DNA from: a virus
Taxonomy: Duplodnaviria; Heunggongvirae; Uroviricota; Caudoviricetes
DNA: 64,000 nucleotides
Strand: one strand, 5' to 3'
IMG/VR virus record: IMGVR_UViG_2706794671_000006
Shown here: in pieces, positions 6,268 through 64,000 of the stretch
Position numbering within the stretch: the first letter of the stretch is position 1
Layout: every line of letters begins with the position of its first letter
Made by a program: the position numbers and the translations under genes
The notes under the pieces: model-generated
Told to the model about the DNA's origin: nothing
Database searches by the model: none
The model's input: the letters and a program-made list of their open reading frames with translations, nothing else

Positions 6268-6353
6268 ATATAGACACAATCCCTCCTGATTTACACAATC
6301 CCTAAAACAATTTGTTTTCTACCTTTTGTTGATTGAGATAATAAGCCACATAA

Positions 6354-6369
6354 GAAAACAACTTGTTTT
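6354..6369 (+). promoter_or_regulatory. motif A palindrome GAAAACAAcTTGTTTT upstream of first element gene (second copy at ~6304-6319)
   Basis: Near-perfect inverted repeat AAACAA-N-TTGTTT, 13 nt before the ATG at 6382. Confidence 0.45.
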
Positions 6370-6381
6370 GGAGTAGTTGAA

Positions 6382-6681
6382 ATGTTGAACATTACCCAAG
6401 CCTACCAGGTGGCATTGATCAGTTCATCTCATACATCAGAGGAAGATGCTCGCCGATTCATGATCGCAAGCAATGAGCTGGATTGGGTTTCACAAATTGA
6501 GTACGGTTGCATTGTCCACGCCGGGTTACAGGACGATGACTGGAAAGATGAGTTGCGTCGATATGGTATATCCGAGGGTGCGATTGCGAACATTCAGAAA
6601 GTACTTGATGTAGGCTTTAACTCTGTACATTTTGATTGTGGCGCACCGGTCGTTGAAGGGCTTGAGTGCTGGCAATGGTAA
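6382..6681 (+). CDS. hypothetical protein (first gene of mobile element)
   Basis: 99 aa ORF with GGAG RBS; no recognisable domain. Confidence 0.55.
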   Translation: MLNITQAYQVALISSSHTSEEDARRFMIASNELDWVSQIEYGCIVHAGLQDDDWKDELRRYGISEGAIANIQKVLDVGFNSVHFDCGAPVVEGLECWQW

Positions 6682-6717
6682 TCCGGCAATCGCTTCATAC
6701 TAGATAACGGAGAATTT

Positions 6718-6903
6718 ATGCTTAAAGAAGACTCATATCTACTAAAGGCGCTTGAAATGAGTGGCGTTGAACCTACAGTGAAAAACGCTCACGATATCTA
6801 CCTTCAGTTTTCGACAGAGCTGAAACAGCTCATAAATAAATATGGAGTGAACGACTCCAGCGTCAAAGCCATGATAGATGATGAATTAGACCATCTCATC
6901 TAA
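6718..6903 (+). CDS. hypothetical small protein
   Basis: 61 aa ORF with ACGGAG RBS. Confidence 0.5.
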   Translation: MLKEDSYLLKALEMSGVEPTVKNAHDIYLQFSTELKQLINKYGVNDSSVKAMIDDELDHLI

Positions 6904-6959
6904 TCAAACCGTTGATAATGGCGGTCACAATTTGATTCTTTTCTATAAGAACCCGTTGA

Positions 6960-7800
6960 TCGCCACTACTACCCTCCCATACCAGCAATCACATCATTAA
7001 ATATCAATAGGTTATGGTTGTTTATACCAATAAGAAAACAACTAAATAACAGATCAACGAAACATCAACGCTTTCTCCCGATTTGGTCTAAAAAATTGAC
7101 GTTATCACACATCACTTCTTATACCCGTAATTCTACGCAGCAGATAGCGCCACAGCGTCCAAATTTCACCACAGACGACTCAACACACTACCAACAAAAA
7201 CACACGCTCAAAATCGCTCCCGTTGCGTTACACAACCATATAAACAACTTATTTTCAGGCATAACAAAACAACCAAATAACACATATGCCATTACCCAAA
7301 ACAACCAACCTCTTTATGGCAGGCTACCGAAAAGACCCACCTCTTCTCCCCAGGCTACCGGACAACCAACCTAACTTTCACAGGCAATCCGAAAACATTC
7401 ATACGCGCGATACCCACGACACGCCATTACCCAAACAGCGAAGAAACACCTGAACCGCTGAAACCCTAACGAAGCCTGTAACCGCAAGGTTTCTCTCAAT
7501 CCCAAAAGACACGAAACATAACAATCACGGGAAACGCCATTACCCAATACACGAATAACTACAAAAGCCTTCACACACTCCAGACAAACAACTCAAACAC
7601 AATAACGAAAGCAATCGCCCACCTGCCATTACTCCATACACGGAGAAGAACAATCACCAAAACGACGAGAACACCCCCATAGAAGAACCACCGCAAAACT
7701 AACGAAACCACATACACCGACAGAGAAAACAACACACCCAATTCACCAACAGAAATAGTCGCCGTATAGAACATTCTGGAAGGAGTGAGCATTAACGCCT
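6960..7800. other. AC-rich (G/T-poor on plus strand) non-coding tract with iterated CGCCATTACCCAA and CAGGCTACCG motifs
   Basis: Extreme strand composition skew read directly; ORFs called here have no RBS and low-complexity translations. Confidence 0.6.
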
Positions 7801-7871
7801 ATAGAGAGGTTGAGACAGATAAAACACAACATGTATAGCGAAGAAGCCAGGTATGTATAAGTGGAGAGGGA

Positions 7872-7896
7872 AGGAGGTGTGTCGCCTCCTTTTTCG
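7872..7896 (+). terminator. terminator-like hairpin after AC-rich tract
   Basis: AGGAGG-TGTGTCG-CCTCCT followed by TTTTCG. Confidence 0.45.
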
Positions 7897-8444
7897 TATT
7901 TATTCAACATCTTACCATCACCCCCCGTAACACCCCTACGGTCAGCCTTCGGTCCATACAGAGAAAAGGTTGCATACGCTACAGAAACGGCTGGGGATTT
8001 TCAGGGAAACGGTCGAGTTGCCTGTGTGGATTTCGGGAAAAGGCTCGATGCCGGTTCTGGAACGGCGGCGTACCGGTATAGCGAGAGAGTTGCAGCTACC
8101 CACCTGTAATGTGCGGGAAGAAGAGAGGCGCTCACGTGCAGGCTGACTTGCTTACCGCTGGATTCCCTCTGAATGCCAGATACAGCGTAATTGTGCCAGA
8201 CAGCCAGCGGGTCACAATCGATTTCAGTAGGTTTTCGGGGAGAGGATTATTCTACCCACCAGCCCCGCGGCGCGCGTAGAGCAGAATATCGTAAATACTG
8301 GCTCTCGTGTCGTTCCCGGATATTCACTGCCCAGCCTGGCTTTCCCGACATAAAATCCTTTTTCGCCTTTATCTTATTGCGATAATAACACCAACAAGTA
8401 AACAGCATATTTAGACGTTATAGAAACGAAGTGAGGATGAAGAG

Positions 8445-8663
8445 ATGATTAAGATGCCTGTGACGGTTGAGGTGTGGGGCGTGGATTCCCTGGCTGAGTG
8501 TCTGGATGCAGTGGGGCCGGAGTTGTACCGCAAGTTGTGGTCGTTCGTCCCGGCAGAAGGGGAATCGCCCAAAGGGAAGGATATCTGGCACCTGCTGAGT
8601 GAAGATGAAAAGCGGGAGCTGGTGGGCGCGGTACACAGCGAGTTCCCGGACGACCAAGATTAA
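8445..8663 (+). CDS. hypothetical acidic small protein
   Basis: 72 aa, GAGGA RBS 8 nt upstream, terminator follows. Confidence 0.6.
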   Translation: MIKMPVTVEVWGVDSLAECLDAVGPELYRKLWSFVPAEGESPKGKDIWHLLSEDEKRELVGAVHSEFPDDQD

Positions 8664-8669
8664 GAGTGA

Positions 8670-8693
8670 GGCCACCAGCACGGTGGCTTTTGT
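8670..8693 (+). terminator. rho-independent terminator
   Basis: GCCACC-AGCAC-GGTGGC + TTTTGT. Confidence 0.6.
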
Positions 8694-8726
8694 CGCTATT
8701 AACCTCGGGGCAGCGCAGCACCGTAA

Positions 8727-8790
8727 CGATATACTTTGTGGCCGTTTTCTTACTGGTATTGTTTACGTAATTCAGAAAACAACATGTTTA
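8727..8790 (+). promoter_or_regulatory. ~60 bp promoter-like segment, copy 1 (TTGTGGCCG...TATTGTTTACG + degenerate motif A)
   Basis: Near-identical to 9228-9285; contains -35/-10-like hexamers. Confidence 0.4.
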
Positions 8791-8801
8791 AGGATTGCTT
8801 T

Positions 8802-9131
8802 ATGTTTGCAAATATCGACATCAACCAAATTAAGAAATTGACTCAAAAAGAGTTTGACCAGTTTTATGAGCTGGAAGGTTGGTCTTCCACTCTGATTAAT
8901 TCAAGATGGGTGCTGGAGCTGATGACTCGTGATGACGCACCTGCTTTGATGATTTGCGACATGGGTGAAGATGCTGACTTTATGGATATGAGCGAATTTT
9001 GTGTGGACACATACAACCGCAGCCAGAAGTACTACTTCACATGCGATAGCGAAAATGACGTGATTTCTAAGGTCTATCTTCACCTCGTCCAGCATTGGGA
9101 CGTTCAGGACTTCCTTGCGATATTCGCGTAA
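8802..9131 (+). CDS. hypothetical protein
   Basis: Start moved to MFANIDIN with AAGGA RBS; 109 aa. Confidence 0.55.
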   Translation: MFANIDINQIKKLTQKEFDQFYELEGWSSTLINSRWVLELMTRDDAPALMICDMGEDADFMDMSEFCVDTYNRSQKYYFTCDSENDVISKVYLHLVQHWDVQDFLAIFA

Positions 9132-9227
9132 GCCCAACCAAAGCCAGCATTGCTGGCTTAACTTCATCTGTAGCCGCAGGGAAGAACCTGCATATCGCTC
9201 ATGCGCCTGATCAATATGCTTTGTAGC

Positions 9228-9285
9228 CGTTTTCTTACTGGTATTATTTACGCCATTGAGAAAACAAGTTGTTTACGGAGTTGTG
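9228..9285 (+). promoter_or_regulatory. ~60 bp promoter-like segment, copy 2, ending in motif A GAAAACAAGTTGTTTAC
   Basis: Direct repeat of 8727-8790; motif A abuts the ACGGAG RBS of the next gene. Confidence 0.4.
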
Positions 9286-9597
9286 ATGAAAAAATCATTG
9301 GTTCTTGGTCTGGACAAAGACCAGAAGAGAAAAGAGAAGCCTGCACTGGTTGCTCAATTAACTTTGCTGGACATCGTTGCCAATGGAACCTCTATTCGTC
9401 TGTTCCGTGAAACAGCGGTGTCTTTCGATAAAAACACCTTTACTCGTTATGTAATGAATGTTCGTCGCCAGCGTGGAAAAGGCTGGATGGCATTTCAAAG
9501 AATGTGGCCGGAACATCAGCTCGAACTGGCTTTGATGGAAGTTAACCGCGTGGCCCAGCAAGAGATTCAGAGAGCATCAGTGATGGCAATAGCCTGA
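9286..9597 (+). CDS. hypothetical basic protein
   Basis: Start at MKKSLVLG with ACGGAG RBS; terminator follows. Confidence 0.6.
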   Translation: MKKSLVLGLDKDQKRKEKPALVAQLTLLDIVANGTSIRLFRETAVSFDKNTFTRYVMNVRRQRGKGWMAFQRMWPEHQLELALMEVNRVAQQEIQRASVMAIA

Positions 9598-9633
9598 TAA
9601 TGTGCAAGTGGTAATTAGTCGACAGTACGACAG

Positions 9634-9659
9634 CCCCGCCATCCTTACGGGGTTTTTTT
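9634..9659 (+). terminator. rho-independent terminator
   Basis: CCCCG-CCATCCTTA-CGGGG followed by TTTTTTT. Confidence 0.7.
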
Positions 9660-9723
9660 GTATTGTAAGTACATACCTATGTCTATAAAATAGAAAAATA
9701 ACCAAGACACTATGGAGAGTGAT

Positions 9724-10119
9724 ATGAGCGTTAAACGAGAAAACCTGACAGTTGATGTCTACTATGCTTCAGAAAGCGCCGAAGGTAAGAATGTAGCTAA
9801 AATCACCGTCGTTACGTACAACACCGAAACTGGAACTGAAGTTCAGGCAAGTACTATTGTGCGTAAAGGAGATACATCAGGCGGGGAATATGAGGCGCAA
9901 TATCAGTCCATTTTTGATGCAACGGACCCGTTGTTGTTGAAAATTGAAAGTTACTTCCGTAAGGTGAATAAAGAGGTGTTTGAAACCATGATGAATATGG
10001 TTAACACCGTATTCGCTTCCAGTCTGAACACTAACACTACCTGGATTGGTCAGTATGGTCTGCGCATTACCTCCGGCATTCCTGCTGACACCTTAATCCC
10101 TGAAAGCGTATTCGCTTAA
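9724..10119 (+). CDS. hypothetical protein
   Basis: Start set at MSVKREN (GGAGAG RBS); 131 aa. Confidence 0.55.
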   Translation: MSVKRENLTVDVYYASESAEGKNVAKITVVTYNTETGTEVQASTIVRKGDTSGGEYEAQYQSIFDATDPLLLKIESYFRKVNKEVFETMMNMVNTVFASSLNTNTTWIGQYGLRITSGIPADTLIPESVFA

Positions 10120-10128
10120 TCCTCTTTG

Positions 10129-10156
10129 AATGGCGCGTAAACCGCGCCATTTTCTT
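10129..10156 (+). terminator. rho-independent terminator
   Basis: ATGGCGCG-TAAAC-CGCGCCAT followed by TTTCTT. Confidence 0.6.
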
Positions 10157-10165
10157 ATGCCCGAT

Positions 10166-10181
10166 AACAATTTGTTTTCTG
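10166..10181 (+). promoter_or_regulatory. motif A (TAACAATTTGTTTTCT)
   Basis: Palindrome family member ~58 nt upstream of the 10238 start. Confidence 0.4.
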
Positions 10182-10237
10182 CCTTATCTGATTTGTGAAA
10201 ATGCTTTCACTGAAAGCAACTTGATAAGGAAACCATC

Positions 10238-10612
10238 ATGGGACTTGATATCTACATTGAGACGCAACCAAAAAACGATCTGAATAACGATGCATCCAGA
10301 AAGAAGGTTGCTTACTTCCGTAAGTTCAATGCTCTCTTTGGGTGGATGGAACGCAACGTAGGTGAAGTCAAAAATTGTGAGCTTTTAGAATTAACGATGA
10401 ATGACATTTGTGCTCTGAAAGCTCATTTGATGCACATGAACGAAAGTAACTGCGAAGAGTACTTACCTACCTGTGAAGGTTTTTTCTTCGGCAGTCAGGA
10501 GTACGATGAAGGGTACTGGCATGACGTGGGGGAGTTGAAAAAACTTGTGGAAGAGCTGATTAAGAACCACGACTTTCACAATAACAGACTGACCTTCTGC
10601 GCCTGGTGGTAA
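10238..10612 (+). CDS. hypothetical Cys-containing protein
   Basis: 124 aa ORF. Confidence 0.55.
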   Translation: MGLDIYIETQPKNDLNNDASRKKVAYFRKFNALFGWMERNVGEVKNCELLELTMNDICALKAHLMHMNESNCEEYLPTCEGFFFGSQEYDEGYWHDVGELKKLVEELIKNHDFHNNRLTFCAWW

Positions 10613-10614
10613 AT

Positions 10615-10758
10615 ATGGGCGATTTCAAGAAACGCCTGAAGGAAAGAGCCGAGATAGTCAGAAAGCAAAACGCCTCTTCTGTCATCAGATACGCAAGGCA
10701 GTTTAGTCGCAACAACAAATCAGTTGAGGAAAAGATCCTTAGCGTAATCGGTCGATAA
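10615..10758 (+). CDS. hypothetical 47-aa basic peptide (below ORF-track cutoff)
   Basis: ATG 3 nt after upstream stop, in-frame to TAA; hairpin follows. No clear RBS. Confidence 0.3.
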   Translation: MGDFKKRLKERAEIVRKQNASSVIRYARQFSRNNKSVEEKILSVIGR

Positions 10759-10927
10759 TTATTAAGGCCACCACTGCTGGTGGCCTTAAATGACCATCCT
10801 GTTTCCCGCAGGCTAAAAACACCAACCTCTTACCTCCAGGCAACCGACAAACCCACCTGTTCCCGTCCGGCTACCGCAACTTTCCACTTTGACGCCTTAT
10901 TCGTACAACGATAATTAACGCCAACAA

Positions 10928-10943
10928 GAAAACAATTTGTTAT
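10928..10943 (+). promoter_or_regulatory. motif A (GAAAACAATTTGTTAT)
   Basis: 20 nt upstream of the 10963 start, just before AAGGAA RBS. Confidence 0.45.
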
Positions 10944-10962
10944 TTACGATAAGGAATTAATC

Positions 10963-11445
10963 ATGAATTTTATCGCTACTGTAAACGCACCCGCACATGG
11001 CAATATCGCTGTAACGTTCTCTGACATTGAAAAACGAGTACTTGGTGCATGGCGCGACAATGAGACGGTAGAACTGTCAGCACAAGAAAAATGCATTATT
11101 GCACGCGACATCATTGGCAATCGTCGTTACTCGCGGGTATTTGAGAAAGCGTATGTGGTAAATTCTGGATTCGGAACGTTCGTCTTTCCGGTGCGCTCCG
11201 GGCGATTCTGCCAGTCCAAGCTGATTGAGTTCGCTACGCAGATTTCTGTCTGGATTAAAACTCAATCGTCGTTCAAATTTTCCGACGATGAAGCAGTATC
11301 GCAGGGGATGCGGATCGCCAACAATGCAATTAAATGCAAAAACATTACGTATACCGCTGGCGTTGATACATGGAAACTGTTTTGCGCTAACTTTATGCTG
11401 AATGTATACGCAAGCAACCGCATCCACATCCTTGATGGCGTGTAA
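10963..11445 (+). CDS. hypothetical protein
   Basis: 160 aa ORF; last gene of the rightward early block. Confidence 0.55.
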   Translation: MNFIATVNAPAHGNIAVTFSDIEKRVLGAWRDNETVELSAQEKCIIARDIIGNRRYSRVFEKAYVVNSGFGTFVFPVRSGRFCQSKLIEFATQISVWIKTQSSFKFSDDEAVSQGMRIANNAIKCKNITYTAGVDTWKLFCANFMLNVYASNRIHILDGV

Positions 11446-12060
11446 CTGAGAAGAGGGCCAGTAACGGCCCTTTCTCTATAGCCACCAGATGCCGCAGGGA
11501 AATTTTCAGAAACGGCGAGGAACGTATTCATGAACCGACGGGGAACGGCCAGGATTTTTTCGGGAAACGGCTGCATTCGCCTTTATGTAGAAAAAACATC
11601 GGGAAGCTGGTGGAATCCAACCAGCGGTTGTCGGACAGGTGAGCGGGGAAAATTATGATGACTTTCGTCGCCTGAGACATCCAGATTTCTTTCGTAGCGT
11701 AATCGCATACGTGATTAAGTGGTGTGATTATGTGAAAAATCACGCGCACATAATACGCGAGCGGATACGGAACAAAACAAAATGCCGATCCGCGCCGACA
11801 AATAAACGCGGATCACATAGCAAGACTAAAAGCCAATGATTAACCATACTCTATAGCGCAATATAACGTGTTTTAAGCGCGTTAATGTGTTAAGTAATGG
11901 GTATGTACTGACAAGGATATAAAAGCGCGTCTATGGCGTTATTTTGGCGCTTATTTTTATGTTGTTGGAGTGAGTTAAAGACAATAAAAACGCGCCATCA
12001 TTGGCGCGTTATGGTAGGTGTATTGGAAACGAAAAAAGCGCCCATAGTGGGCGCTCGATT

Positions 12061-12291
12061 TTATTTGTGTAAACTGATTTTAAATCCCATTTCGACAAAC
12101 GCTTTTAACATTAAAAATATATCAGCGTCGTTCACGTCTGCTTTTTTTCGCTCCTGGTCGCTCAATAAGTCAATTTTGCGCGTCGTTTCATCTATAAGCT
12201 CGACTGCGCGCCCAGCGTAACCAGCGATCCCAGCGATGCGATTAACATAATATTCATTATGGACGTTAACGCCAGCGATAAGAACAAACAT
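12061..12291 (-). CDS. hypothetical protein
   Basis: 76 aa ORF in AT-rich minus-strand cluster; hairpin GCGCCCATAGTGGGCGC directly 3'. Confidence 0.45.
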   Translation of the reverse strand: MFVLIAGVNVHNEYYVNRIAGIAGYAGRAVELIDETTRKIDLLSDQERKKADVNDADIFLMLKAFVEMGFKISLHK

Positions 12292-12564: not shown

Positions 12565-13215
12565 TTACGCTTTGAAAGCGTCAGCTAAATAATTGTAGAA
12601 ATCATTTTTAATGAAGCGATATTGCTGAGTACCAGCTTTTGCGATCCCAGCTCCTTTGACTTTTTCAACAAGTCCAAGACGTTCGCAAAGATTGATCAAC
12701 TGGTTGGCTTGAGTATAGCCAGCGTCCAATTTAATCTCACACGCTTTTTTAGCTTCATTCATTAAATCGAAAACAGCGCCATTGGTGAACGTGTCGATCT
12801 CGTCGTTAATCATATCGATTAAAGCAAATACACGAGATCCAGACATATCAGCGATGGAATAAACGCATTTACCAGATTTAATTGATTTAACCAGATAAAC
12901 CAGTTTTTCCAGTGAATAACTATTAGTCATTGCATCACGGAAAAATACTTCTGGCGCTTGTTTGCTTGCTTTAATCGCATAGTAGAAAACAGAGCATAAT
13001 TTTTCGTCTTCTACTGCGTTTACGACGTTGTTGATGAAGTAAGCAAGTTTAGTGGTCGCAGCTTGCATATTTGCTTTGTCTGCTTTAGTGTGCGTACCAT
13101 TTTTATAATGTTCGTTATATGTTTGAGTTGCCAGATCTGCTTTTTCGCGCAGTTCGTCGGATACAATAGATGCAGCTTCAATGATGGACTTTTTAGAAAT
13201 GATAATGTTAGCCAT
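12565..13215 (-). CDS. hypothetical protein
   Basis: 216 aa ORF, AT-rich codon usage distinct from neighbours. Confidence 0.55.
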   Translation of the reverse strand: MANIIISKKSIIEAASIVSDELREKADLATQTYNEHYKNGTHTKADKANMQAATTKLAYFINNVVNAVEDEKLCSVFYYAIKASKQAPEVFFRDAMTNSYSLEKLVYLVKSIKSGKCVYSIADMSGSRVFALIDMINDEIDTFTNGAVFDLMNEAKKACEIKLDAGYTQANQLINLCERLGLVEKVKGAGIAKAGTQQYRFIKNDFYNYLADAFKA

Positions 13216-13512
13216 GATTTTATTCCTTAGTATAAATATTAAAATTTAACTCAAGAAAGAAAGTGTTTTGCACTCGTTCCTGATGCGTTCAATTATCGAT
13301 ACGCGAAAAAAGATTGCAAGTGTTTTTTTAAGTTTTTTTGCAGGGATGAAAGTCCTAGAAATAAATGTTAGATCGTCGAGGGTGTTCCCTAAATAAATAA
13401 TCGATTCCGGCTTTAGACCTTATATATTTATACGGGGTAGAATTGAAAGAGTATAAAATGAATGGCATGTAAAATAATAACCGGACTTAGCCGGTTATTA
13501 CCCTTATAGAAA

Positions 13513-14034
13513 TTAAAACGGAAGGATTCGTTCAACCCAATCGAAGAAAATAAGTATTTTTCTACCGTCTTCCAACTTAAGTGTGACTAGACAGGCGTCA
13601 ACGCCATCTGACGTTCCCTCAATTTCGCGACCGTCTGCCATGTAGACCCTTATAGATTTGCCGTTTTGGTAAGCCTGACGACATATCTTAAAAAAGTCAC
13701 GACGTGATGGCTGATTAACCATCTGTTCATTGTTTAGCGTTAGTCGACCTGTGAATGAAGTGTCAACCTCTTCTATGCCCGACTCAATTGTGCTAATGCG
13801 CTCAAGAGGGAGCCTTATACGATTTGTGTTGCTAAGCGGATCTGGTGTGAGGTTCAGCTTATTTCTTGCGCTCAATAGCCCGTAGACATACATGCAAAAC
13901 ACTTGGCCGTCTTCGAGAGTGACTCTTACAGGAAATTTTGCACTCCGCCAGAAGAGCAAGGTACGTTCAGCATGTTCGTAGTCTCGCGGCCATACTTCAG
14001 CCGGTATGCCGTAGGTGATGTCCAATGTTCTCAT
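13513..14034 (-). CDS. hypothetical cytoplasmic protein, translationally coupled to upstream secreted-protein gene
   Basis: 173 aa; ATGA start/stop overlap with 14031-14624. Confidence 0.55.
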   Translation of the reverse strand: MRTLDITYGIPAEVWPRDYEHAERTLLFWRSAKFPVRVTLEDGQVFCMYVYGLLSARNKLNLTPDPLSNTNRIRLPLERISTIESGIEEVDTSFTGRLTLNNEQMVNQPSRRDFFKICRQAYQNGKSIRVYMADGREIEGTSDGVDACLVTLKLEDGRKILIFFDWVERILPF

Positions 14035-14624
14035 TCTGATACTCTTAGAGGTGTTTTCAGCAACCCAAATTTAAATTCTTTGTTACCAACGACAAAGAAG
14101 GGAACCTCAACATAGATTTTTTTATCGACGGATTTAGAGTTCGCTGTTTTCTGTATGTCACGAACGATACGTTTTGAGGTATTTTCATCGATAAACAATA
14201 CCTTTCCACTTGTATTCCCTTCAGCCTTGGCGTAAGTAACGATAGGCTCTTCATTGCCAACCCTAATGTTTACTTGGCAACCTGTTGTAGCCATTTCATC
14301 ACAGTAAAGTGTGCCGTCTTGAACTTCCAAAACAATTCCAGATGGCTTCATGGCTTCGTCAGAGCTTACATTAACGTTTTCTGGTACAGCGGTTCCGTTA
14401 ATTTGCAACCGTAATCTTTCTTTTCCTGCATTAAGTATTGTTTCTTCTGCGTTATCTGAGAATCTGAACCAGACTGGTTGAATCAGACCTCGTGATTCGT
14501 ATTTTAGTACGTCTTCAGAAGTATACATGCTGTACGTTTTTTGCATGTCGGAGACGATATCTGACAACGCATTGGCGGAAAATGACGAGAGGTATATACA
14601 AGCAAGAAGTAACGAACGTTTCAT
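14031..14624 (-). CDS. predicted secreted/periplasmic protein (Sec signal peptide, ANA cleavage motif)
   Basis: N-terminus MKRSLLLACIYLSSFSANA-LSD; 197 aa. Confidence 0.6.
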   Translation of the reverse strand: MKRSLLLACIYLSSFSANALSDIVSDMQKTYSMYTSEDVLKYESRGLIQPVWFRFSDNAEETILNAGKERLRLQINGTAVPENVNVSSDEAMKPSGIVLEVQDGTLYCDEMATTGCQVNIRVGNEEPIVTYAKAEGNTSGKVLFIDENTSKRIVRDIQKTANSKSVDKKIYVEVPFFVVGNKEFKFGLLKTPLRVSE

Positions 14625-14805
14625 TTTTATACAGCGATTATTGCAAAGTAGAATTATAAATATCCAATAGTCTCAAACGATAAGTTTTCAACTGTAAATA
14701 GCAGACGTGTTTTCTCTAAAAGCTGTGCGGCAAAGGCGTTGTTGCCGCACTCTGTCTATTAGCTCTTCAAGTCTGGCAATTCTGAAATTGACTAAGAATC
14801 CAATA

Positions 14806-15084
14806 TTACGGCAGTTTGCTTAGAATTTGCTCTAAATCTTCCTTTGTCATATTAGAGTTCTCATAGATGCGCATGATTTTCTCACGAGCCTTAGCAGAGA
14901 CTCCAACGGCAGATGAAACTTTGTCAAATTCAGCCATCGTCATCGTCTCCAGAATGGTATTGATAACTTCAGCCTTAGACATTTTGATGTTTTTTTCTTT
15001 TAGTTTCATTTGAAACTTTCCAAGTTTGTCATTGGCCTTATCGGACAATGCCACCTGACAATAAGTTGTTTTCTTTTCGCTCAT
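14806..15084 (-). CDS. hypothetical small protein downstream of helicase
   Basis: 92 aa ORF starting 3 nt after the helicase stop. Confidence 0.5.
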   Translation of the reverse strand: MSEKKTTYCQVALSDKANDKLGKFQMKLKEKNIKMSKAEVINTILETMTMAEFDKVSSAVGVSAKAREKIMRIYENSNMTKEDLEQILSKLP

Positions 15085-15086
15085 AA

Positions 15087-55250: not shown

Positions 55251-55273
55251 GATAGGTAAGTACAAGATTATTT
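55251..55273 (+). promoter_or_regulatory. motif B (GATAGGTAAGTACAAGATTATTT)
   Basis: Immediately upstream of the 55274 ATG. Confidence 0.4.
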
Positions 55274-55756
55274 ATGGCGGTAGTTGTGAAAGCTGATTTG
55301 TCAAAAATCCCCTCTATTTCAGGAAATAATGGTTATTCACTTCGTTGTGAGGAAGTAAAGATAAACGGTGAGTCGGCATATTGCAGCTACTCCGTTTGCC
55401 AGCACACCATTCTTGCCTTCAAAGAAAACCGTCTTCCTCGAACTTCATTCCAGTCGTGCGCAACCGCTATCAAAGCAGGCAAATGCAAGGCGTTAAAAAT
55501 GATGGTTGAAGAGATTCGTAAAGGAGAATCTCTGTATTTCGAAGATATGACCGCGCTCATTAAGGAGGTTGAAGAACGGAATAAACAAGCCAGAACTTTA
55601 AAACGAAAACGTGACAGTGTAACGATTAATAGCATGGTTAAGAAGAGCACCACATCACAAACAGCGATCACTGACGTGTATGCGGCGTTGCTTGAAGAAA
55701 CAACAAAAGAAACACATGAGCAAATCGATCAACATATGGAGGTAAAACAACAATGA
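55274..55756 (+). CDS. hypothetical Cys-rich protein
   Basis: 160 aa, five Cys in N-terminal 70 residues. Confidence 0.5.
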   Translation: MAVVVKADLSKIPSISGNNGYSLRCEEVKINGESAYCSYSVCQHTILAFKENRLPRTSFQSCATAIKAGKCKALKMMVEEIRKGESLYFEDMTALIKEVEERNKQARTLKRKRDSVTINSMVKKSTTSQTAITDVYAALLEETTKETHEQIDQHMEVKQQ

Positions 55757-57075
55757 AAAAGTTGATCGCACTTAAGCATAAGCTGGACGAAATGAAAGCT
55801 ATGGGAACCAATGCAAAAAAAGAGGCATTGGCCAACATGGATGACTTCGAGCAAAGCATGGTTTCATTGATGCTCAACCCTTTCATCCGTTTTGGGGTAA
55901 AGAAATACAAAGTGGCAGAGCCGCTTAGTGAGTCCATCCCAAGTGACGAAAAAGCCATTGATGTACTGAATAAGCTGGCCTCTCGCGAGCTAACGGGGAA
56001 CGCAGCAATAGCAGCTGTTGAGTCTATCGTGGCGTCAATGTGCGCCGATGGGCAGGACGTGTTCCGTCGTTTCCTCTTAAAAGACCCGAAAGCAGGTGTT
56101 GGGATTAGCCTATGCAACAAGGTTTTTGAAAATCCCATTCCGAAATTCGAGGTGCAGCTGGCGTCACCGTATAAAGAAAAAGGCGACAAATACCCCTTCA
56201 AGCCAAATCCTAAAGCAAAATGGCCGATGATTGGCAGTCTTAAGCTCGATGGTTTGCGAGTAATTTGCGAGGTTATTGTTGACGAGGAAGAGGTTAACTT
56301 CCTTTCTCGTACTGGTAATCCAATCACGTCTCTCGATCACCTAAAGCCAGCAATGCTAGAATTAGGCAAACTTTCAGGCCACAAACACATCTTCTTCGAT
56401 GGTGAAGGAACTGCCGGTTCATTTAACCAGTCCGTATCTGCATTGCGCAAAAAGAACGTGCAGGCAATTGGCGCTATTTATCATGTTTTCGACTTCTTCC
56501 TACCGGAATGGCGAGCACAGGCTAAATCCAAAGAGTATGCAAAGACAGGTATGAAGCTGAAAGAGCGCCTGGCTATGCTGGTGGCGTTGTTTAAAAACGA
56601 TCGCAGTGAAGGCTACACACAAGACATTCACCTGCATCCGTTCTATATCATCCATAGCCACGAAGACTTCATCGAACGCTTCATGAAACGCCTGGACGAT
56701 AACGAAGAAGGGGAGATGGGCAAAGATCCGAACTCTGTTTACGAGTTTAAACGTACCCGCAGCTGGTGGAAGTTAAAAGACGAAGATTCAGAAGATGGTG
56801 AAATTATCGATTTTGAGCCGGGCGACCCGGACTCTGGTTTTGCCAACACGCTTGGAAAAATAGTTATTCGTCTTGAAAACGGCGTCATCGTTCGTGCGAG
56901 CGGCATTAAGCATAAATATCTGGACGAGATCTGGAACAACAAAGAGAAGTACCGTGGTCGTATTGTCGAGGTTCATTGTCACGAGAAAACACCTGATGGC
57001 AGCTTACGCCACCCACGACTGAAATGGCCGCGTTGCTTACGCGATACCGAAGATCGAATCGGAGATAAAGAATGA
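55753..57075 (+). CDS. ATP-dependent DNA ligase
   Basis: Adenylation motif I SLKLDGLRV (KxDG), FDGE motif; 440 aa. Confidence 0.8.
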   Translation: MKKLIALKHKLDEMKAMGTNAKKEALANMDDFEQSMVSLMLNPFIRFGVKKYKVAEPLSESIPSDEKAIDVLNKLASRELTGNAAIAAVESIVASMCADGQDVFRRFLLKDPKAGVGISLCNKVFENPIPKFEVQLASPYKEKGDKYPFKPNPKAKWPMIGSLKLDGLRVICEVIVDEEEVNFLSRTGNPITSLDHLKPAMLELGKLSGHKHIFFDGEGTAGSFNQSVSALRKKNVQAIGAIYHVFDFFLPEWRAQAKSKEYAKTGMKLKERLAMLVALFKNDRSEGYTQDIHLHPFYIIHSHEDFIERFMKRLDDNEEGEMGKDPNSVYEFKRTRSWWKLKDEDSEDGEIIDFEPGDPDSGFANTLGKIVIRLENGVIVRASGIKHKYLDEIWNNKEKYRGRIVEVHCHEKTPDGSLRHPRLKWPRCLRDTEDRIGDKE

Positions 57076-58482: not shown

Positions 58483-58557
58483 GATGGTGTAGCTCAGCGG
58501 TAGAGCAGTTGGCTGTTAACCAATTGGTCGGTGGTTCGAATCCACCCACCATCGCCA
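58483..58557 (+). tRNA. tRNA-Asn (anticodon GTT)
   Basis: Manual fold: acceptor GATGGTG/CACCATC, anticodon loop CTGTTAA, T-arm GGTGG-TTCGAAT-CCACC, 3' GCCA. Confidence 0.8.
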
Positions 58558-58562
58558 ATTTA

Positions 58563-58649
58563 GGGGAGTTAGTCCGTAGAGGTAGCGGGGTAGACTGTAA
58601 ATCTACTGTCATTGCGACTCGGGTGGTTCGACTCTATCACTCCCCACCA
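58563..58649 (+). tRNA. tRNA-Tyr (anticodon GTA), type II with long variable arm
   Basis: Acceptor GGGGAGT/ACTCCCC, anticodon stem GTAGA/TCTAC with loop CTGTAAA, T-loop TTCGACT, 3' ACCA. Confidence 0.75.
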
Positions 58650-58653
58650 AATT

Positions 58654-58729
58654 GCCGATTTAGCTCAGTTGGTAGAGCAGTCGCTTTGTAAGCGAATGGT
58701 CATCGGTTCGATCCCGTTAATCGGCACCA
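58654..58729 (+). tRNA. tRNA-Thr (anticodon TGT)
   Basis: Acceptor GCCGATT/AATCGGC, D-arm GCTCAGTTGGTAGAGC, anticodon loop TTTGTAA, T-loop TTCGATC, 3' ACCA. Confidence 0.75.
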
Positions 58730-58734
58730 ACATA

Positions 58735-59215
58735 ATATTGAGAACATTGGCGTAACGGGGTCATATCCCAATCTATGAATAAATGTTGCGTTGCCGCGTG
58801 ACAACCAGTGTTCTCAACATTGTGGTGAATGCACAGGCTGATGTGCCGCAACTACAGTAGTGCGCGCTTTGCGGGGCTTGCTACAACCCTGTGTCGGAGA
58901 TCAGCGCCGACCATCACAATTTGGCTCTCTTGCAACAGCATAACGCTGAAATATGTCCAACCTGGTGCGGCCTGTTCACCCGCCGTTAGCTCCACGAAAC
59001 GGAGCGCACAACAGGTAAGAACATTTTCAGAGTTCGACTCTCTGAGTTGCCATTCGTGGTGGCACGCGAGACGTGAATGCTCTTTCCGTTGTGGTTGATG
59101 CGCAGACTGATGCGCGGAAAGAAATGCCCCAGCGACACACGAGGCGAGTTCACACACTGCAATGCAGTCAGTAGCCGGGGTCGCTAAGCCGGAGATCAGT
59201 ACCGGTAACCACAAC
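58735..59215 (+). other. ~480 nt highly structured non-coding spacer between tRNA-Thr and tRNA-Ser
   Basis: Multiple hairpins (GCACAGGCTGATGTGCC, GCGCAGACTGATGCGCG, GCTCC-ACGAAAC-GGAGC) and a T-loop-like CAGAG-TTCGACT-CTCTG without acceptor stem. Confidence 0.4.
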
Positions 59216-59219
59216 GACT

Positions 59220-59306
59220 GGAGAGTAGGGAGCATGGTGCTCAAGCGGTCTTGAAAACCGTCCCATTGCGCAAGCGATGATGGTTCGATTCCATTACTCT
59301 CCGCCA
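59220..59306 (+). tRNA. tRNA-Ser (anticodon TGA), type II; unusual D-arm
   Basis: Acceptor GGAGAGT/ACTCTCC, anticodon loop CTTGAAA, T-loop TTCGATT, 3' GCCA; D-arm GAGC-ATGGT-GCTC is non-canonical. Confidence 0.6.
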
Positions 59307-59531: not shown

Positions 59532-61445
59532 ATGTCATTCATTGACTATGATATTTTGTCAGCATCATCAAGCAAAGAGCTTAGAGAAAAACTTGCGGAG
59601 AAAATCGCAGAGGGTTGGCAACCTTTCGAGTCACCAAACATTGTTGAACCAAGTAAGGGCGGACCAAATGCGTACAATCAAGCAATTGTGCGATCTGGTG
59701 ATTTATCACAATTGCCCACACCGGTATCAAATGAAGATGAAGAGCCTGACTATTATTATGTAGTTACTATCGCAGGTCAATCCAACTCAATGTCATACGG
59801 CGAAGGACTGCCTATGCCAAAAACTTTTGATCGGCCACATCCTCGCGTAAAACAGTTAGCTCGACGCAGCAATATTAAACCAGGTGGTTTTGCCTGTAAG
59901 TACAATGAAATAATTCCCGCTGATCACTGTCTTCATGATGTACAAGACATGACTAAATTCAAGCATCCAAAAGCAAACGACTCTGAATATGGATGTGTTG
60001 GTCAGGGACTACACATTGGCAAAAAACTATTACCATTCATTCCAGCAAACGCAGGTATTTTGCTCGTTCCTTGCGGAAGAGGTGGTTCTGGTTTCACTGT
60101 TACAGGCTCTGAAGGCCAATATTATGAAGAGTCAGGTGCAATCGAATCATCTTTAAAATGGGGATTAAATACTCCTTTGTATAAGGATATTGTAGCCAGA
60201 ACAAAAGCGGCCTTAAGTAAAAACAAAAAGAATGTATTTCTTGGTGTTGTCTGGATGCAAGGCGAAGCTGATTTGGCAACTGGCAAGTACTCGCAGCATA
60301 ACGAACTGTTCCTCAAGATGGTCGAAGGTTTCAGAAAAGAGCTATCTCAATACGACGCACAATGTGTTTTCGGAAGTGCTGCAAATGTACCCTGGATTTG
60401 TGGCGATACGACCCACTGGTGGAAAAACAAATATCCAAAACAGTACGAAATTGTTTATGGTGGTTATAAGGGAAAAACCTCACAAGCAATTTATTTCGTT
60501 CCATTCATGAAAGATGAGAATGATAATAACGTATTAACCAATAGCCCTACAGATGATCCAGACATCACATCTATTGGCTATTATGGTTCCGGTCATCGCA
60601 AGGATAATAAAACATGGACTTCCGAGAGTAGAGAGAGTCATTTTGGTTCATGGCAGCGACGCGGAATAATATCTGATCGTCTCGCAACTGCGCTGCTTGC
60701 ACATTCAGCGAAATCATCTGCTTTTGTGAATGGCGTTACAGGTGAGATTATTAAACAAGAACAACCTACTCAACCTAAAAATGACAACATTGTCACAACT
60801 CCAACCCCGCGAACGGTTATTTCCTTAACTGGAGCTGGTGGTGATGTCGCTACTGAACAAGGATGGACTGTAACTGGTGCAAATATTCAGTCAGTTGAAA
60901 ACGGAAAAGCAATTGCTTTAACTAAAGCGGTTTCCAACGAAACTTGGACGATCAGTAAAGCTACTGACATAGCACAGGCTCTTCTTGAGAATGGAGGTAA
61001 ATTACTTTGTAAGTTTAAATTATCTGGAAACCCTGATCCAAAAAAAGCTAAGTTTGGCTTTGGTATATATTACAAAACCAGTAAACCTGTTGCTGACGAT
61101 ATATCATTCGACGGTACTGGGAGCCTGTTTCTGGCTAACTTCTTCCTTCAAACAATTGGAGGCAAGTTGAACATTATGATGCACAGGACAGGCAATAATC
61201 GAAATGTTCAGATAGACTCATATGGTGACTACGACAACAATTGGCACACTCTTGAGTTGCAATATGAGAAAGGCACAGGAACTGTAATTCCCGTTCTCGA
61301 TGGCAAGGCGGGGAGTAAATTCAAGCTGGTTAAAGACAATATTGCTCTTGGTGATGAGGCTTTTGTTTTAACAGATATAACAAACAACCAAACTCATGAT
61401 CTTGCTATCGAAACACTTACCATTAGCATCAACAACCCAACCTAA
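59532..61445 (+). CDS. SGNH/GDSL-type carbohydrate esterase with C-terminal lectin-like domain (putative)
   Basis: Block I VVTIAGQSNSMSYG; VVWMQGEAD block; beta-rich C-terminal ~230 aa. Confidence 0.5.
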   Translation: MSFIDYDILSASSSKELREKLAEKIAEGWQPFESPNIVEPSKGGPNAYNQAIVRSGDLSQLPTPVSNEDEEPDYYYVVTIAGQSNSMSYGEGLPMPKTFDRPHPRVKQLARRSNIKPGGFACKYNEIIPADHCLHDVQDMTKFKHPKANDSEYGCVGQGLHIGKKLLPFIPANAGILLVPCGRGGSGFTVTGSEGQYYEESGAIESSLKWGLNTPLYKDIVARTKAALSKNKKNVFLGVVWMQGEADLATGKYSQHNELFLKMVEGFRKELSQYDAQCVFGSAANVPWICGDTTHWWKNKYPKQYEIVYGGYKGKTSQAIYFVPFMKDENDNNVLTNSPTDDPDITSIGYYGSGHRKDNKTWTSESRESHFGSWQRRGIISDRLATALLAHSAKSSAFVNGVTGEIIKQEQPTQPKNDNIVTTPTPRTVISLTGAGGDVATEQGWTVTGANIQSVENGKAIALTKAVSNETWTISKATDIAQALLENGGKLLCKFKLSGNPDPKKAKFGFGIYYKTSKPVADDISFDGTGSLFLANFFLQTIGGKLNIMMHRTGNNRNVQIDSYGDYDNNWHTLELQYEKGTGTVIPVLDGKAGSKFKLVKDNIALGDEAFVLTDITNNQTHDLAIETLTISINNPT

Positions 61446-61522: not shown

Positions 61523-61553
61523 ATGATTCCATACTCTTTAGGTATGGAATCAT
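61523..61553 (+). other. 12-bp perfect inverted repeat ATGATTCCATAC / GTATGGAATCAT upstream of recombinase gene
   Basis: Read directly; followed by TTTCC. Confidence 0.5.
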
Positions 61554-61652
61554 TTTCCGCATGAAAGATTTTAGCTTGATTCCAAAAGAATCAATGCCTA
61601 ATATACTGGTTACTTATACAGGTGATCAGCGTAACTAGGTGAATGCCAATAA

Positions 61653-62756
61653 ATGAAAAATAGCTTTGACAGAGCACGCGCAGCAGAAAACACCTCAAAA
61701 GAGGCAATTGAGTATCTCGAAAGAGCATCTCAAATGCAGGCCATTATGATCTCACAGATCAACAATAACATGATATTCTCGGACGCATTCATGTTATTCA
61801 CTCGCTTATCTCTGCTGATAACCAGACGTCGGCCAGAGATCGCTGTTCATTGTATTTTGATACATGTTTTGCCGCACATTGCTGATGTAAAAGTAAGTGA
61901 CATTAATAGGTTCATGGTTAACCAACTGGTCAACCCTCTAATATTGGATGGCAAAATTGTTATGGGCCGCCGCGTTTTCTCTCTGATGAAGCAGTTCCTT
62001 AGCTGGTGCGCCTTCCAGGGGATGATAGACGTGTCACCGTTAAACGATATGTCACTAAACAAAGTTGCCGGTGGCGCAAAGCCCACACCTCGCGAGCGGA
62101 AGCTGACCGACGCAGAGGTATGGGTGTTCTGGAATATATGGGACTACTTCAATGTGTGCGCTGGTACAAAATGGGCGGCCAGGCTATGTCTTGTATCAGC
62201 AAGACGACCTGACGAAGTACTGAGGGCTAAAAAAAGTGAGTTCAATCTTAAGCGTGGAGTTTGGAATCAAGGCAAGAGAAACAAGTCAGCACGTGAGCAT
62301 TCGCTACCTTTAAGCACATTAATGCGCACATGCATTGAAGAGTTGTTCGAATACGGTAAAGACAGCCAGTGGCTCGTGCCTTCGAATAAAAAAATCGGGA
62401 AAGACCTTCCTATGTCTAAAGTGGCAATAGCCCAGGCATTACGTCGTATTCTGGAACGACCAGAACTGATGGAGCTTGCGCCATTTACACCCCGAGATTT
62501 GCGCCGTACTGCGCGTAGTTACTTCCCAGCATTAGGCATAAGCCAGGAGGTATCACGCAAAATAATGAACCACAGTCTTGAGGGGATAGATCGGGTCTAC
62601 GACCGGCACGATTATATGGACGAGATGCGAGACGCCTTAGAAAGTTTCTCAACGTACATCGCATCAATCGTAGAGCAACCGGATTTAGACGAAATTGACC
62701 ACAAATTCAAGGGAGATCGTCTATCAACAGAGCTTATTCGTCTAAATTTTTCATAG
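61653..62756 (+). CDS. int: tyrosine recombinase / integrase
   Basis: C-terminal catalytic signature PRDLRRTARSYF...MNHSLEGIDRVYDRHDY; start uncertain. Confidence 0.75.
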   Translation: MKNSFDRARAAENTSKEAIEYLERASQMQAIMISQINNNMIFSDAFMLFTRLSLLITRRRPEIAVHCILIHVLPHIADVKVSDINRFMVNQLVNPLILDGKIVMGRRVFSLMKQFLSWCAFQGMIDVSPLNDMSLNKVAGGAKPTPRERKLTDAEVWVFWNIWDYFNVCAGTKWAARLCLVSARRPDEVLRAKKSEFNLKRGVWNQGKRNKSAREHSLPLSTLMRTCIEELFEYGKDSQWLVPSNKKIGKDLPMSKVAIAQALRRILERPELMELAPFTPRDLRRTARSYFPALGISQEVSRKIMNHSLEGIDRVYDRHDYMDEMRDALESFSTYIASIVEQPDLDEIDHKFKGDRLSTELIRLNFS

Positions 62757-63137
62757 AGACTTTATGGCCTCAACAACCTTTTGTGATGCGCCTTTCTCTT
62801 TACCGAATCGCTCGTTATATGCAGCAAGAACCTGTTTTTCGTCCTCGTTAAGAGGAGCGGTACCTTCTTTGTATAAAAATGCTGCGAGTTCAGGTTGGCG
62901 TTCTTCCAGCACCATCATCATAAGACGACTTGGCTCAATACCCAGCGCCAACGCCAGCGGACGAACCTTATCGATAGGCAAAGGAATTTTACCACTTTTA
63001 ATTAAAGAAAGGTTGTTGGCATTTTTATAACCAATAAGTCTGGCTATTTGGGCCTGACTCATAGGTGAGGATTCAATCAGCCCTGCGATAAAAGCAGCAT
63101 AGCGACTTTCTATAAATTCAATGTTTTTGTCAGACAT
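62751..63137 (-). CDS. XRE-family helix-turn-helix regulator (repressor candidate)
   Basis: HTH-like segment SQAQIARLIGYKNANNLSLIKSG; convergent with int, divergent from downstream AT-rich region. Confidence 0.6.
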   Translation of the reverse strand: MSDKNIEFIESRYAAFIAGLIESSPMSQAQIARLIGYKNANNLSLIKSGKIPLPIDKVRPLALALGIEPSRLMMMVLEERQPELAAFLYKEGTAPLNEDEKQVLAAYNERFGKEKGASQKVVEAIKSL

Positions 63138-63384
63138 TATTGCGACCTTTGCGCGTTAAACTCTCTGGTAAGTGCTTACCGATATTACATCAAAGGTTAG
63201 GGTTGTAAAGATATAATCATTTTTTCTACAGGCACAAATATTAACCAATCAGCATTCATTAATGGAGAAAAACGACTAATAACATGTAACAAAACTAACT
63301 CAGATATGATATAGATAAGTTCAATTATGATATAAGATTTAATAGTACTCCCTACCATATTTTAAGTTAGAATGGATTGATTGA

Positions 63385-63597
63385 ATGAAAACAACTATTT
63401 CCAGCCTAATCACTCTTGAGATCGGACACGTTGAAAAATTAGCTGATGAATGTGTAGCTGACATTCTCACCGAATTACCAAATGAGCAGATTCAGGTTGG
63501 TATGCATGACGCAACAGCCTTTATATTCCTACTTAATAACAAACGCTTCACGCTTATCAATACCGGCTCTGGCTCTTTAGCCGTCAGAACCTGTTAA
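63385..63597 (+). CDS. hypothetical small protein
   Basis: 70 aa ORF after AT-rich divergent region. Confidence 0.4.
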   Translation: MKTTISSLITLEIGHVEKLADECVADILTELPNEQIQVGMHDATAFIFLLNNKRFTLINTGSGSLAVRTC

Positions 63598-63664
63598 CCC
63601 CTCTGCTACCTGCGCGAATGGCTTAGTTCCCTGTTCGCGCAGTGCTACATTAAACACACTAGTA

Positions 63665-63680
63665 AATAATTTGTTTTCAT
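63665..63680 (+). promoter_or_regulatory. motif A (AATAATTTGTTTTCAT)
   Basis: 16 nt before the 63696 ATG, followed by AAAGGA RBS. Confidence 0.4.
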
Positions 63681-63695
63681 AACAAAGGATTAGCC

Positions 63696-64000
63696 ATGTC
63701 TAAAAAACGTTCCATCAAAGAGGTTCAGGACTTCCGTGACAGTGTAAAACGAGTAGTCGCTCTCCTTTCAGGTAAAAACATCCCTGTTGCAGAACGAGGA
63801 GACGACGCTTATGTACGCTATAACGATGATGGAGAGCCAATTCTCGTAAACATCCCATCAATTCCGGATAACGCAACACCGGCATTGATGAATGCTGTGC
63901 GCGGATTTCTCGATCATGAGGTTGCTCTCATTTTGTTTACCGATATTCGTGTCTCCAACAAAATGAGAGAAAAAGGACGCGTTCCTTCCCGGTCACTATG
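63696..64000 (+). CDS. hypothetical protein, 3' end beyond window
   Basis: ATG with AAAGGA RBS; frame open to window end. Confidence 0.5.
   Translation, partial: MSKKRSIKEVQDFRDSVKRVVALLSGKNIPVAERGDDAYVRYNDDGEPILVNIPSIPDNATPALMNAVRGFLDHEVALILFTDIRVSNKMREKGRVPSRSL

Follow-up and report, generated by a model that had tools for sequence, protein, structure and literature searches.

The SSU5/pHCM2 type of phage-plasmid includes Salmonella phage SSU5 (JQ965645), which was isolated as a phage (PMC7969092), and pHCM2 of S. Typhi. Among the relatives of this type, p09EL50 of Escherichia coli O104:H4 2009EL-2050 (NC_018651.1) ran as a band of ~110 kb in pulsed-field gel electrophoresis (PMC3486847), and Cyrano/pLF82 (OV696614.1) was reported to be held at 5.5 copies per cell and to yield ciprofloxacin-inducible siphovirus virions; its tape measure protein, like that of the element described below, has 1525 amino acids (aa) (PMC9928086). 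SSU5-group phage-plasmids were found in 18% of Shigella sonnei isolates, most of them highly conserved, and the authors equated this clade with the 'recently described pWPMR2' (bioRxiv 10.1101/2025.09.12.675607). Carriage of metG by phage-plasmids has also been published, and the phage-plasmid-borne metG of S. sonnei was linked to antimicrobial survival, according to the passage of PMC12452169 that cites Tam et al.

The present analysis concerns the IMG/VR virus record IMGVR_UViG_2706794671_000006, a stretch of 64,000 nucleotides (nt) that is called the window below. A preliminary description of this window proposed a phage-plasmid of the SSU5/pHCM2 type that begins at position 6280, directly downstream of a chromosomal metG, and that is either integrated or part of a chimeric contig. 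Comparison with closed genomes and plasmids indicates that the phage-plasmid at 4414–64000 is, by nucleotide identity, the described S. sonnei SSU5/pWPMR2 type and is not new as biology. The window itself is very probably a scaffold of two contigs from a draft assembly, one from the S. sonnei chromosome and one from the phage-plasmid, and their junction inside metG is most likely an artefact.

The phage-plasmid and its closest relatives

In BLAST searches of plasmid records, 40000–64000 matched at 100% identity over the full query, the matches being closed circular S. sonnei plasmids of 108–109 kb, and 20000–44000 matched S. sonnei circular plasmids at 99.6% identity over the whole query. The matching circular plasmids, LR213459.1, pMHMC-002 (NZ_CP053753.1) and pAUSMDU00010534_01 (NZ_CP045933.1), resemble the window in metG/apbC cargo, gene order and host species, and the S. 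sonnei circular plasmids are collinear with it from 4414 onward. The near-identical relatives measure 108–109 kb, so the window holds about 55% of the element, which runs past 64000 as the preliminary description had expected. For the closed circular records that are 99.6–100% identical to the window, an extrachromosomal replicon of ~100–110 kb holds. Equated via the description of the clade in the cited preprint, the element is, as far as its sequence places it, a near-identical member of the clade K/pWPMR2-like phage-plasmids.

The differences from pMHMC-002 are not spread evenly but cluster at about 7–8, 12–13, 17–19 and 24–25 kb, including the major capsid gene region, with the remainder almost identical, suggesting patchwise recombination among related phage-plasmids. 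In addition, a segment of ~230 bp of pMHMC-002, in which a small 255-bp gene (14064–14318) is located, is missing from the window between 18706 and 18736. The window also departs from the S. sonnei circular plasmids in the first 284 nt of its metG piece, which carry chromosome alleles.

Relatives from other hosts are progressively less similar. Among phage records, Escherichia phage CMS-2020a (CP054387.1, host E. coli) matched 6280–30000 at 99.1% identity over 99% of the query and is 99.5% identical to the window over metG, while p09EL50 showed 98.4% identity over 89% of 40000–64000. Both differ from the window in some accessory genes, e.g., a P-loop NTPase that is present there, and ~11% of 40000–64000 is left uncovered. 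The metG of Cyrano/pLF82 is 96.4% identical to the window metG; however, this phage-plasmid matched just half of 6280–30000, at about 95% identity, and carries toxin–antitoxin genes of its own that were not seen in the window. Klebsiella phage-plasmids in the phage records matched 6280–30000 at ~79% identity.

With SSU5 itself, the nucleotide match starts at 19964 and extends over ~10 kb of head genes (19964–29971) at 81% identity; neither the metG region nor the block of early small genes gave an SSU5 match, although the greater part of that record was not looked at. The module order of SSU5 and pHCM2 is nevertheless that of the window. In SSU5, tail fibre, adhesin, holin, endolysin, Rz, two unassigned proteins, ParA and its partner, helicase, primase, ligase and tRNA follow one another as they do here. 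Amino-acid identity to SSU5 is 84% for the holin, 94% for the endolysin, 91% for ParA, 92% for the ParA partner, 89% for a 249-aa protein, 93% for the helicase, 86% for the primase and 91% for the ligase. The tail fibre (58% over the C-terminus only) and the adhesin (31%) have both diverged. Within the region compared, SSU5 carries a single tRNA, where the window has four; it lacks a counterpart of the 357-aa gene orf357, and showed no counterpart, within its 24–60 kb, of the sialate O-acetylesterase-like (SASA) esterase, the recombinase and the helix-turn-helix (HTH) regulator of the window. Thus, packaging, head and tail genes of SSU5 type (PHROGs matches and 81% nucleotide identity) are present together with an SSU5-type order of the ParA pair, DnaB-like helicase, primase and ligase. 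The proposed SSU5/pHCM2 type is borne out both by this protein collinearity from holin to ligase and by 99–100% nucleotide identity to closed S. sonnei and E. coli plasmids. By these matches, a temperate siphovirus and a plasmid partition/replication module stand together in 4414–64000.

The plasmid state of the family was examined through a segment of its virion module. The terminase–portal–scaffold segment (20700–24500) was found in 237 of 5,426 complete E. coli genomes, in 245 places, all of which are plasmids, and in 0 places on chromosomes of these genomes. Similarly, a 99-aa phage-plasmid protein adjoining metG never occurred on a contig >200 kb in 2,418 collection blocks, in contrast to chromosomal apbC, which was on contigs >1 Mb in 95 collection blocks.

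The gap inside metG

The composition profile, the list of open reading frames (ORFs) and the tRNA scan divide the window into a segment from 1 to ~4.4 kb, with fimbrial-type genes pointing leftward, apbC and the first part of metG, and a mostly rightward array after it. The features around this change are as follows.

1–87, no strand: terminal part of an IS1 copy that splits chromosomal yehB; identical (100%) to the two IS1 copies of the S. sonnei chromosome loci L006 and L013, IS1A match
57–3693, minus strand: yehB' (N-terminal fragment), yehC, yehD, yehE and apbC (mrp), S. sonnei chromosomal; names from E. coli S10
3825–4392, plus strand: metG nt 1–568 of the chromosome-flanked contig, by allele comparison
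4393–4413, no strand: run of 21 N, scaffold gap or masked stretch; sole N run in the window
4414–6220, plus strand: phage-plasmid-borne metG nt 228–2034; NCBIfam methionine--tRNA ligase, 866 bits
6243–6303, plus strand: metG terminator hairpin GCCCGGC-AACAC-GCCGGGC with a T run, then two copies of ACACAATCCCT; intergenic backbone

The element had been described as contiguous with chromosomal metG. However, the run of N, which that description missed, interrupts this gene, and self-comparison showed that the two flanks of the gap, 4052–4392 and 4414–4754, both represent one 341-bp part of metG, with 97.4% identity and 9 mismatches between them; Tandem Repeats Finder reports this overlap as a 362-nt 'duplication'. 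From its start at 3825, metG is written as a left piece of nt 1–568 and a right piece of nt 228–2034. Because the pieces are out of register, the frame is broken, and two ORFs of 200 aa and 601 aa stand in place of one of 677 aa.

The two sides of the gap have different origins, the left being S. sonnei chromosome and the right, from metG nt 228, phage-plasmid. Positions 1–4392, IS1 end included, are collinear with seven closed S. sonnei chromosomes, with 18 differences that all lie in metG nt 108–511. The apbC protein of the window was found exactly in closed chromosomes of ~4.8 Mb with IS1 in yehB, one of which partners the S. sonnei plasmid CP104415.1, whereas this chromosomal apbC is 83% identical to plasmid apbC. 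The right metG piece matches the S. sonnei plasmid at 99.4% identity, and the match extends into plasmid DNA beyond the gene; against the chromosome it shows 94.7% identity, about 90% in its 3' half, and the alignment ends at the metG stop codon. The window has none of the DNA that follows metG on the chromosome, where E. coli S10 has a DUF4132 gene and S. sonnei a WGR-domain ORF plus IS1.

The position of the element's edge was also revised by these comparisons. The preliminary description took metG as a purely chromosomal marker of an edge at 6280, but the phage-plasmid backbone has its own metG and apbC. The apbC and metG genes of the region 1–12000 match plasmid records of about 110 kb annotated with both genes, metG occurs in phage records of the SSU5-like family (CMS-2020a, Cyrano and PhiR41_1), and 219 plasmid places with metG were found in the complete E. 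coli genomes. In circular pAUSMDU00010534_01 and other relatives, the gene order is S24 peptidase, apbC, metG and a DUF5983 gene; in pMHMC-002, metG spans the record start. Since the phage-plasmids own copies of metG and apbC, 6280 is not an end of the element. Its sequence begins at 4414 instead, inside plasmid-borne metG, and the stretch 4414–6905, with metG, its terminator and the 11-mer region, is continuous backbone in the circular plasmids. The window thus carries the backbone-borne metG of the E. coli–Shigella SSU5-like subgroup, with plasmid alleles in nt 228–2034 and plasmid DNA downstream; plasmid apbC and metG nt 1–227 fall outside the phage-plasmid contig, and both genes are present in the relatives.

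The 11-mer ACACAATCCCT, which had been put forward as a possible attachment (att) repeat, does occur twice, at 6274–6284 and 6293–6303 in a motif search. However, 6221–6381, with the terminator hairpin and both copies, lies at the same position in the circular plasmids, and their second 11-mer is degenerate; the pair is therefore not an att core. Allowing one mismatch, 4 matches were found in the window versus about 1 expected, none of them at a plausible far junction. The 11-mer was accordingly rejected as an att site and is backbone intergenic DNA of circular plasmids.

The alleles on each side of the gap were then compared at the 115 sites where S. sonnei chromosomal metG and plasmid metG differ, the copies being about 94% identical. 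The left piece has the chromosome allele at nt 6 and 39 and then the plasmid allele at 18 sites in nt 108–511. The right piece has the chromosome allele at 9 of 9 sites in nt 240–511 and then the plasmid allele at all 95 sites in nt 675–2031. Each contig therefore contains one allele switch, located in the identical stretches nt 40–107 (68 nt) and nt 512–674 (163 nt), respectively, and metG nt 108–511 looks reciprocally swapped between the chromosomal and plasmid copies. Neither mosaic was seen elsewhere, as the complete E. coli genomes reached at most 98.4% identity to 3685–4392 and the plasmid records at most 99.0% to 4414–5300. The alleles are unswapped in L006 and CP104415.1, the chromosome and plasmid of one closed S. 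sonnei genome.

Other assemblies show related irregularities. In other draft assemblies, phage-plasmid contigs stop inside metG at nt 448, 598, 1007 and 1129; the first three stops lie inside long identical stretches (427–510, 512–674 and 997–1127), and nt 1129 falls immediately beyond the third of them. In most assemblies, the contig with chromosomal apbC measures only 2–10 kb, which would be consistent with breaks at IS1 and metG. The phage-plasmid contig of 101.9 kb in locus L017 (GCA_037465585.1, ABQVNR010000014.1) ends in a metG piece (L017 1–1587) that is of chromosome type between nt 448 and about 1962 and shows plasmid alleles at the final four sites only. Locus L016 (5806–7839) has a five-site patch of chromosome alleles inside plasmid metG. 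In the closed S. sonnei chromosome CP102115.1 (L012, 3836–5869), metG alternates ~20 times between chromosome- and plasmid-type alleles; this pattern looks like consensus noise or read mis-mapping in polishing, but gene conversion with the phage-plasmid copy may instead have happened repeatedly. Judged from the alleles, mixing of the two metG copies is recurrent across assemblies.

Artefact, exchange or integration

Both contigs cover metG nt 228–568 with different alleles and therefore are not neighbours in one molecule as written. In the preferred account, contig A (1–4392) would be chromosome from IS1 in yehB to metG nt 568, and contig B (4414–64000 and beyond) would be phage-plasmid from nt 228 of its own metG paralogue. 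A short-read assembly would have collapsed at the two-copy metG repeat, whose copies do not differ at any base over stretches of 68 to 163 nt. Each contig would have strayed once, within one of these long identical stretches, and run on in the other copy's allele for a few hundred bases. The contig ends would next have been joined by a scaffolder across 21 N, and genuine plasmid read pairs may have tied contig B to the end of contig A that bears plasmid alleles. Such an artefact is favoured by the N gap, by the overlap out of register and by the zero chromosomal copies elsewhere; the swap and the positions of the switches fit both this account and a real exchange between the two copies.

Several points weigh against an artefactual join. 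The physical state of the DNA in the isolate is deduced from the assembled sequence rather than observed. Scaffolders normally need read-pair links, and the join is also compatible with a real cointegrate that was poorly assembled. The right contig begins at metG nt 228, where the shared stretch is only 26 nt and offers no obvious branch point of an assembly graph, and 21 N fits no standard gap length assignable to a given assembler. The swapped mosaic is absent from 207 metG-carrying plasmid records and all complete E. coli genomes, which fits an artefact and equally a unique real event.

Real homologous recombination between chromosomal and phage-plasmid metG, with the scaffold gap merely reflecting poor assembly of the repeat, is considered unlikely. 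It could take the form of a RecA-made cointegrate, in which a crossover within nt 40–107 has placed the phage-plasmid at metG, or of integration followed by excision at nt 512–674, leaving nt 108–511 reciprocally exchanged. The alleles would suit either form, for the left contig is 100% chromosome to metG nt 39–107 and then 100% plasmid allele, the right contig mirrors it, and both switches lie in the longest identical stretches, where recombination is also likeliest; mixed alleles occur in other assemblies too (L016, L017 and L012), and a relative is a multi-copy plasmid (PMC9928086), so that chances of exchange would be plentiful. However, the contig ends overlap by 341 bp out of register with 9 mismatches, which adjacent parts of one molecule would not do as written, and a swap fixed in the chromosome and all plasmid copies takes several steps where a mis-threaded assembly graph takes one. 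The virion module is never chromosomal in the 5,426 complete E. coli genomes, contigs >200 kb never carry the phage-plasmid protein that neighbours metG, and the ~20 switches of L012 resemble consensus or polishing noise rather than crossovers. That the multi-copy phage-plasmid and the chromosome truly exchanged metG nt ~108–511, or that a cointegrate persists in the isolate, is accordingly regarded as improbable. A variant of the artefactual reading takes the run of N as a masked stretch (e.g., an adaptor masked in contamination screening) and the window as one chimeric contig in which two sets of reads meet through the masked sequence; 21 N is odd for a scaffold gap and sits exactly between the two out-of-register metG copies, but nothing in the window separates this variant, itself very unlikely, from a scaffold gap, and the join would be artefactual either way.

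A conventional prophage, placed by the tyrosine recombinase immediately 3' of chromosomal metG, the att core being ACACAATCCCT, has almost no probability left. A tyrosine recombinase gene is indeed present, as is the 11-mer direct repeat at 6274–6303, yet 4414–6905 is unbroken backbone in circular plasmids, the metG beside the repeat carries the plasmid allele with a 3' half ~90% identical to the chromosome, no chromosomal DNA from downstream of metG is in the window, and complete genomes hold zero chromosomal copies. A lambdoid prophage with attL and attR, named beforehand as the outcome that would speak against a phage-plasmid, is not what was found, and integration of the conventional kind is refuted as far as sequence allows, by the plasmid backbone across 6280 and the lack of chromosomal copies. 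Neither an uninterrupted chromosomal junction with a repeated att core nor a single in-register hybrid metG between chromosomal and plasmid flanks was observed, the sole junction being the N gap inside metG and the far end lying outside the window. Between the two states first proposed, the chimeric contig is thus better supported than the integrated form.

Gene content and outlook

The remaining features of the phage-plasmid are listed here.

6382–12220, plus strand: small-gene block (DUF5983 and others) with ~1 kb of gene-free A/C-rich DNA (about 6900–7895); function unassigned
12565–16646, minus strand: leftward block of a phrog_1513 protein, a phrog_1444 protein, two small genes and a DEAD/DEAH helicase, by profile searches
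13513–14034, minus strand: phrog_1444 protein (PHROGs; family named 'transcriptional repressor')
15087–16646, minus strand: DEAD/DEAH helicase, by profile searches
16711–19902, plus strand: two ParB-N-domain proteins, an ABC-type ATPase and two small genes, 5' of the packaging genes, by profile searches
20098–45499, plus strand: virion module; PHROGs and profile matches, 81% nucleotide identity to SSU5 over 19964–29971
45597–47030, plus strand: lysis cassette of holin homologue, endolysin, Rz and Rz1 spanins; PHROGs and SSU5 homology
48543–49570, plus strand: partition pair of ParA ATPase (48543–49211; Pfam, NCBIfam and PHROGs) and 119-aa partner
49631–50704, minus strand: 357-aa accessory gene (orf357), not SSU5 backbone, by homologue search
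50970–57075, plus strand: replication block of 249-aa protein, DnaB-like helicase, DnaG/Toprim primase, two unassigned proteins and ligase; 86–93% aa identity to SSU5, order kept
51763–53103, plus strand: DnaB_C helicase, domain match
53113–54366, plus strand: DnaG/Toprim primase, domain match
55753–57075, plus strand: ATP-dependent DNA ligase, domain match
58483–59306, plus strand: tRNA-Asn, tRNA-Tyr, tRNA-Thr and tRNA-Ser; tRNA scan, three also by Rfam
59532–61445, plus strand: 637-aa protein with DUF1737, SASA (sialate O-acetylesterase-like) and DUF6645, by profile searches
61653–62756, plus strand: tyrosine recombinase, by profile search
62751–63137, minus strand: HTH regulator, divergent from the tyrosine recombinase; Pfam match below cut-off, phrog_8 E=7e-12

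The modules named in the preliminary description were recovered by these searches. The virion module was recognised through PHROGs matches to terminase, portal, scaffold, capsid, tape measure, J-like protein and tail fibre. Its head part comprises a DNA-binding protein at the start, possibly the small terminase, followed by the large terminase, portal, scaffold, major capsid and head–tail proteins. Its tail part comprises an Ig-domain major tail protein, the 1525-aa tape measure, tail-tip proteins (annotated in a relative as minor tail protein L, C40 peptidase and tail assembly protein), the J-like protein, the tail fibre and a Gp38-like adhesin. The lysis cassette has endolysin and Rz/Rz1 preceded by the homologue of the SSU5 holin; SSU5_028, labelled hypothetical in SSU5, is 80% identical in amino acids to the window protein that PHROGs names an Rz-like spanin. 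All virion and lysis genes of the window are intact ORFs.

Domain matches likewise agree with the proposed ParA-type pair, DnaB-family helicase, primase, ATP-dependent ligase and tyrosine recombinase, the four tRNAs are present, and the regulator described as XRE was recovered as an HTH regulator through phrog_8. The partition pair corresponds to SSU5_033 (91%) and the adjacent SSU5 ORF 31163–31519 (92%), of which SSU5_034 is the annotated part; from its gene position, the 119-aa protein would be the partner of ParA in partition. A RepA initiator was not recognised within 4414–64000. As SSU5 RepA lies beyond the region syntenic with the window, the replication initiator of this element is probably located past position 64000. 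A search for iterons or an origin near parA (repeats in 47000–52000) returned just short two-copy matches, the Rfam scan of the whole window returned tRNAs only, and PADLOC, run on ten accessory proteins, gave generic helicase and ATPase matches and no defence system.

The gene orf357 was considered as a Rep initiator beside parA and rejected, being missing from SSU5 and the E. coli phage relatives. It had no Pfam, NCBIfam or PADLOC match, and its homologues are limited to three Klebsiella phage-plasmids (78% aa identity) and Vibrio cyclitrophicus phages (44%). Lying as an insertion between the parA pair and the replication block, it is probably an accessory gene.

Three further regions are recorded as side observations. 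The stretch at ~6900–7895 has no annotated gene in any relative and is very A/C-rich and G-poor on the plus strand; it holds three exact copies of GCCATTACCCAA (at 7288, 7423 and 7536) and three tandem 31-nt units (7296–7387), is closed by a terminator-like hairpin (7868–7894), and is about 94% conserved in the E. coli plasmid p3385. A long non-coding RNA and a cis-acting site (e.g., a centromere or iterons) are both conceivable here. At 16711–19626, far from the ParA pair at 48.5 kb, two adjoining ParB-N-domain proteins are followed by an ABC-type ATPase and a 296-aa protein, for which a second partition system, gene silencing and packaging are candidate roles. The SASA-domain protein, whose gene sits after the tRNA cluster and is distant from the tail genes, may be a surface-glycan-modifying or receptor-destroying enzyme.

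Together, these genes suggest how the element would live. In lysogeny it would be a low-copy circular plasmid segregated by ParA and its small partner, and replicated by the helicase, primase and ligase with a RepA encoded outside the window. The tyrosine recombinase would more probably resolve plasmid multimers than integrate the element, a role discussed for phage-plasmids generally (PMC7969092). DNA damage would trigger the lytic cycle; an S24-peptidase repressor-like gene is found just outside the window region in the relatives. On induction, the DNA would be packaged into long-tailed siphovirus virions, which would be released by holin, endolysin and spanins, with metG, apbC and the tRNAs carried along as cargo.

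The metG cargo of S. sonnei phage-plasmids has already been reported as epidemiologically relevant. The practical value of the present finding is a warning, in that metG copies ~94% identical make short-read assemblies break or mis-join. Such mis-joins can mimic chromosomal integration and yield mixed metG alleles, and can mislead prophage calling, single-nucleotide polymorphism typing and association studies at metG. If the exchange of metG were real, the plasmid copy would be a portable region of homology through which the phage-plasmid enters and leaves the chromosome, and alleles would be shuffled in an essential gene that, in the cited account of Tam et al., is linked to antimicrobial survival in S. 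sonnei.

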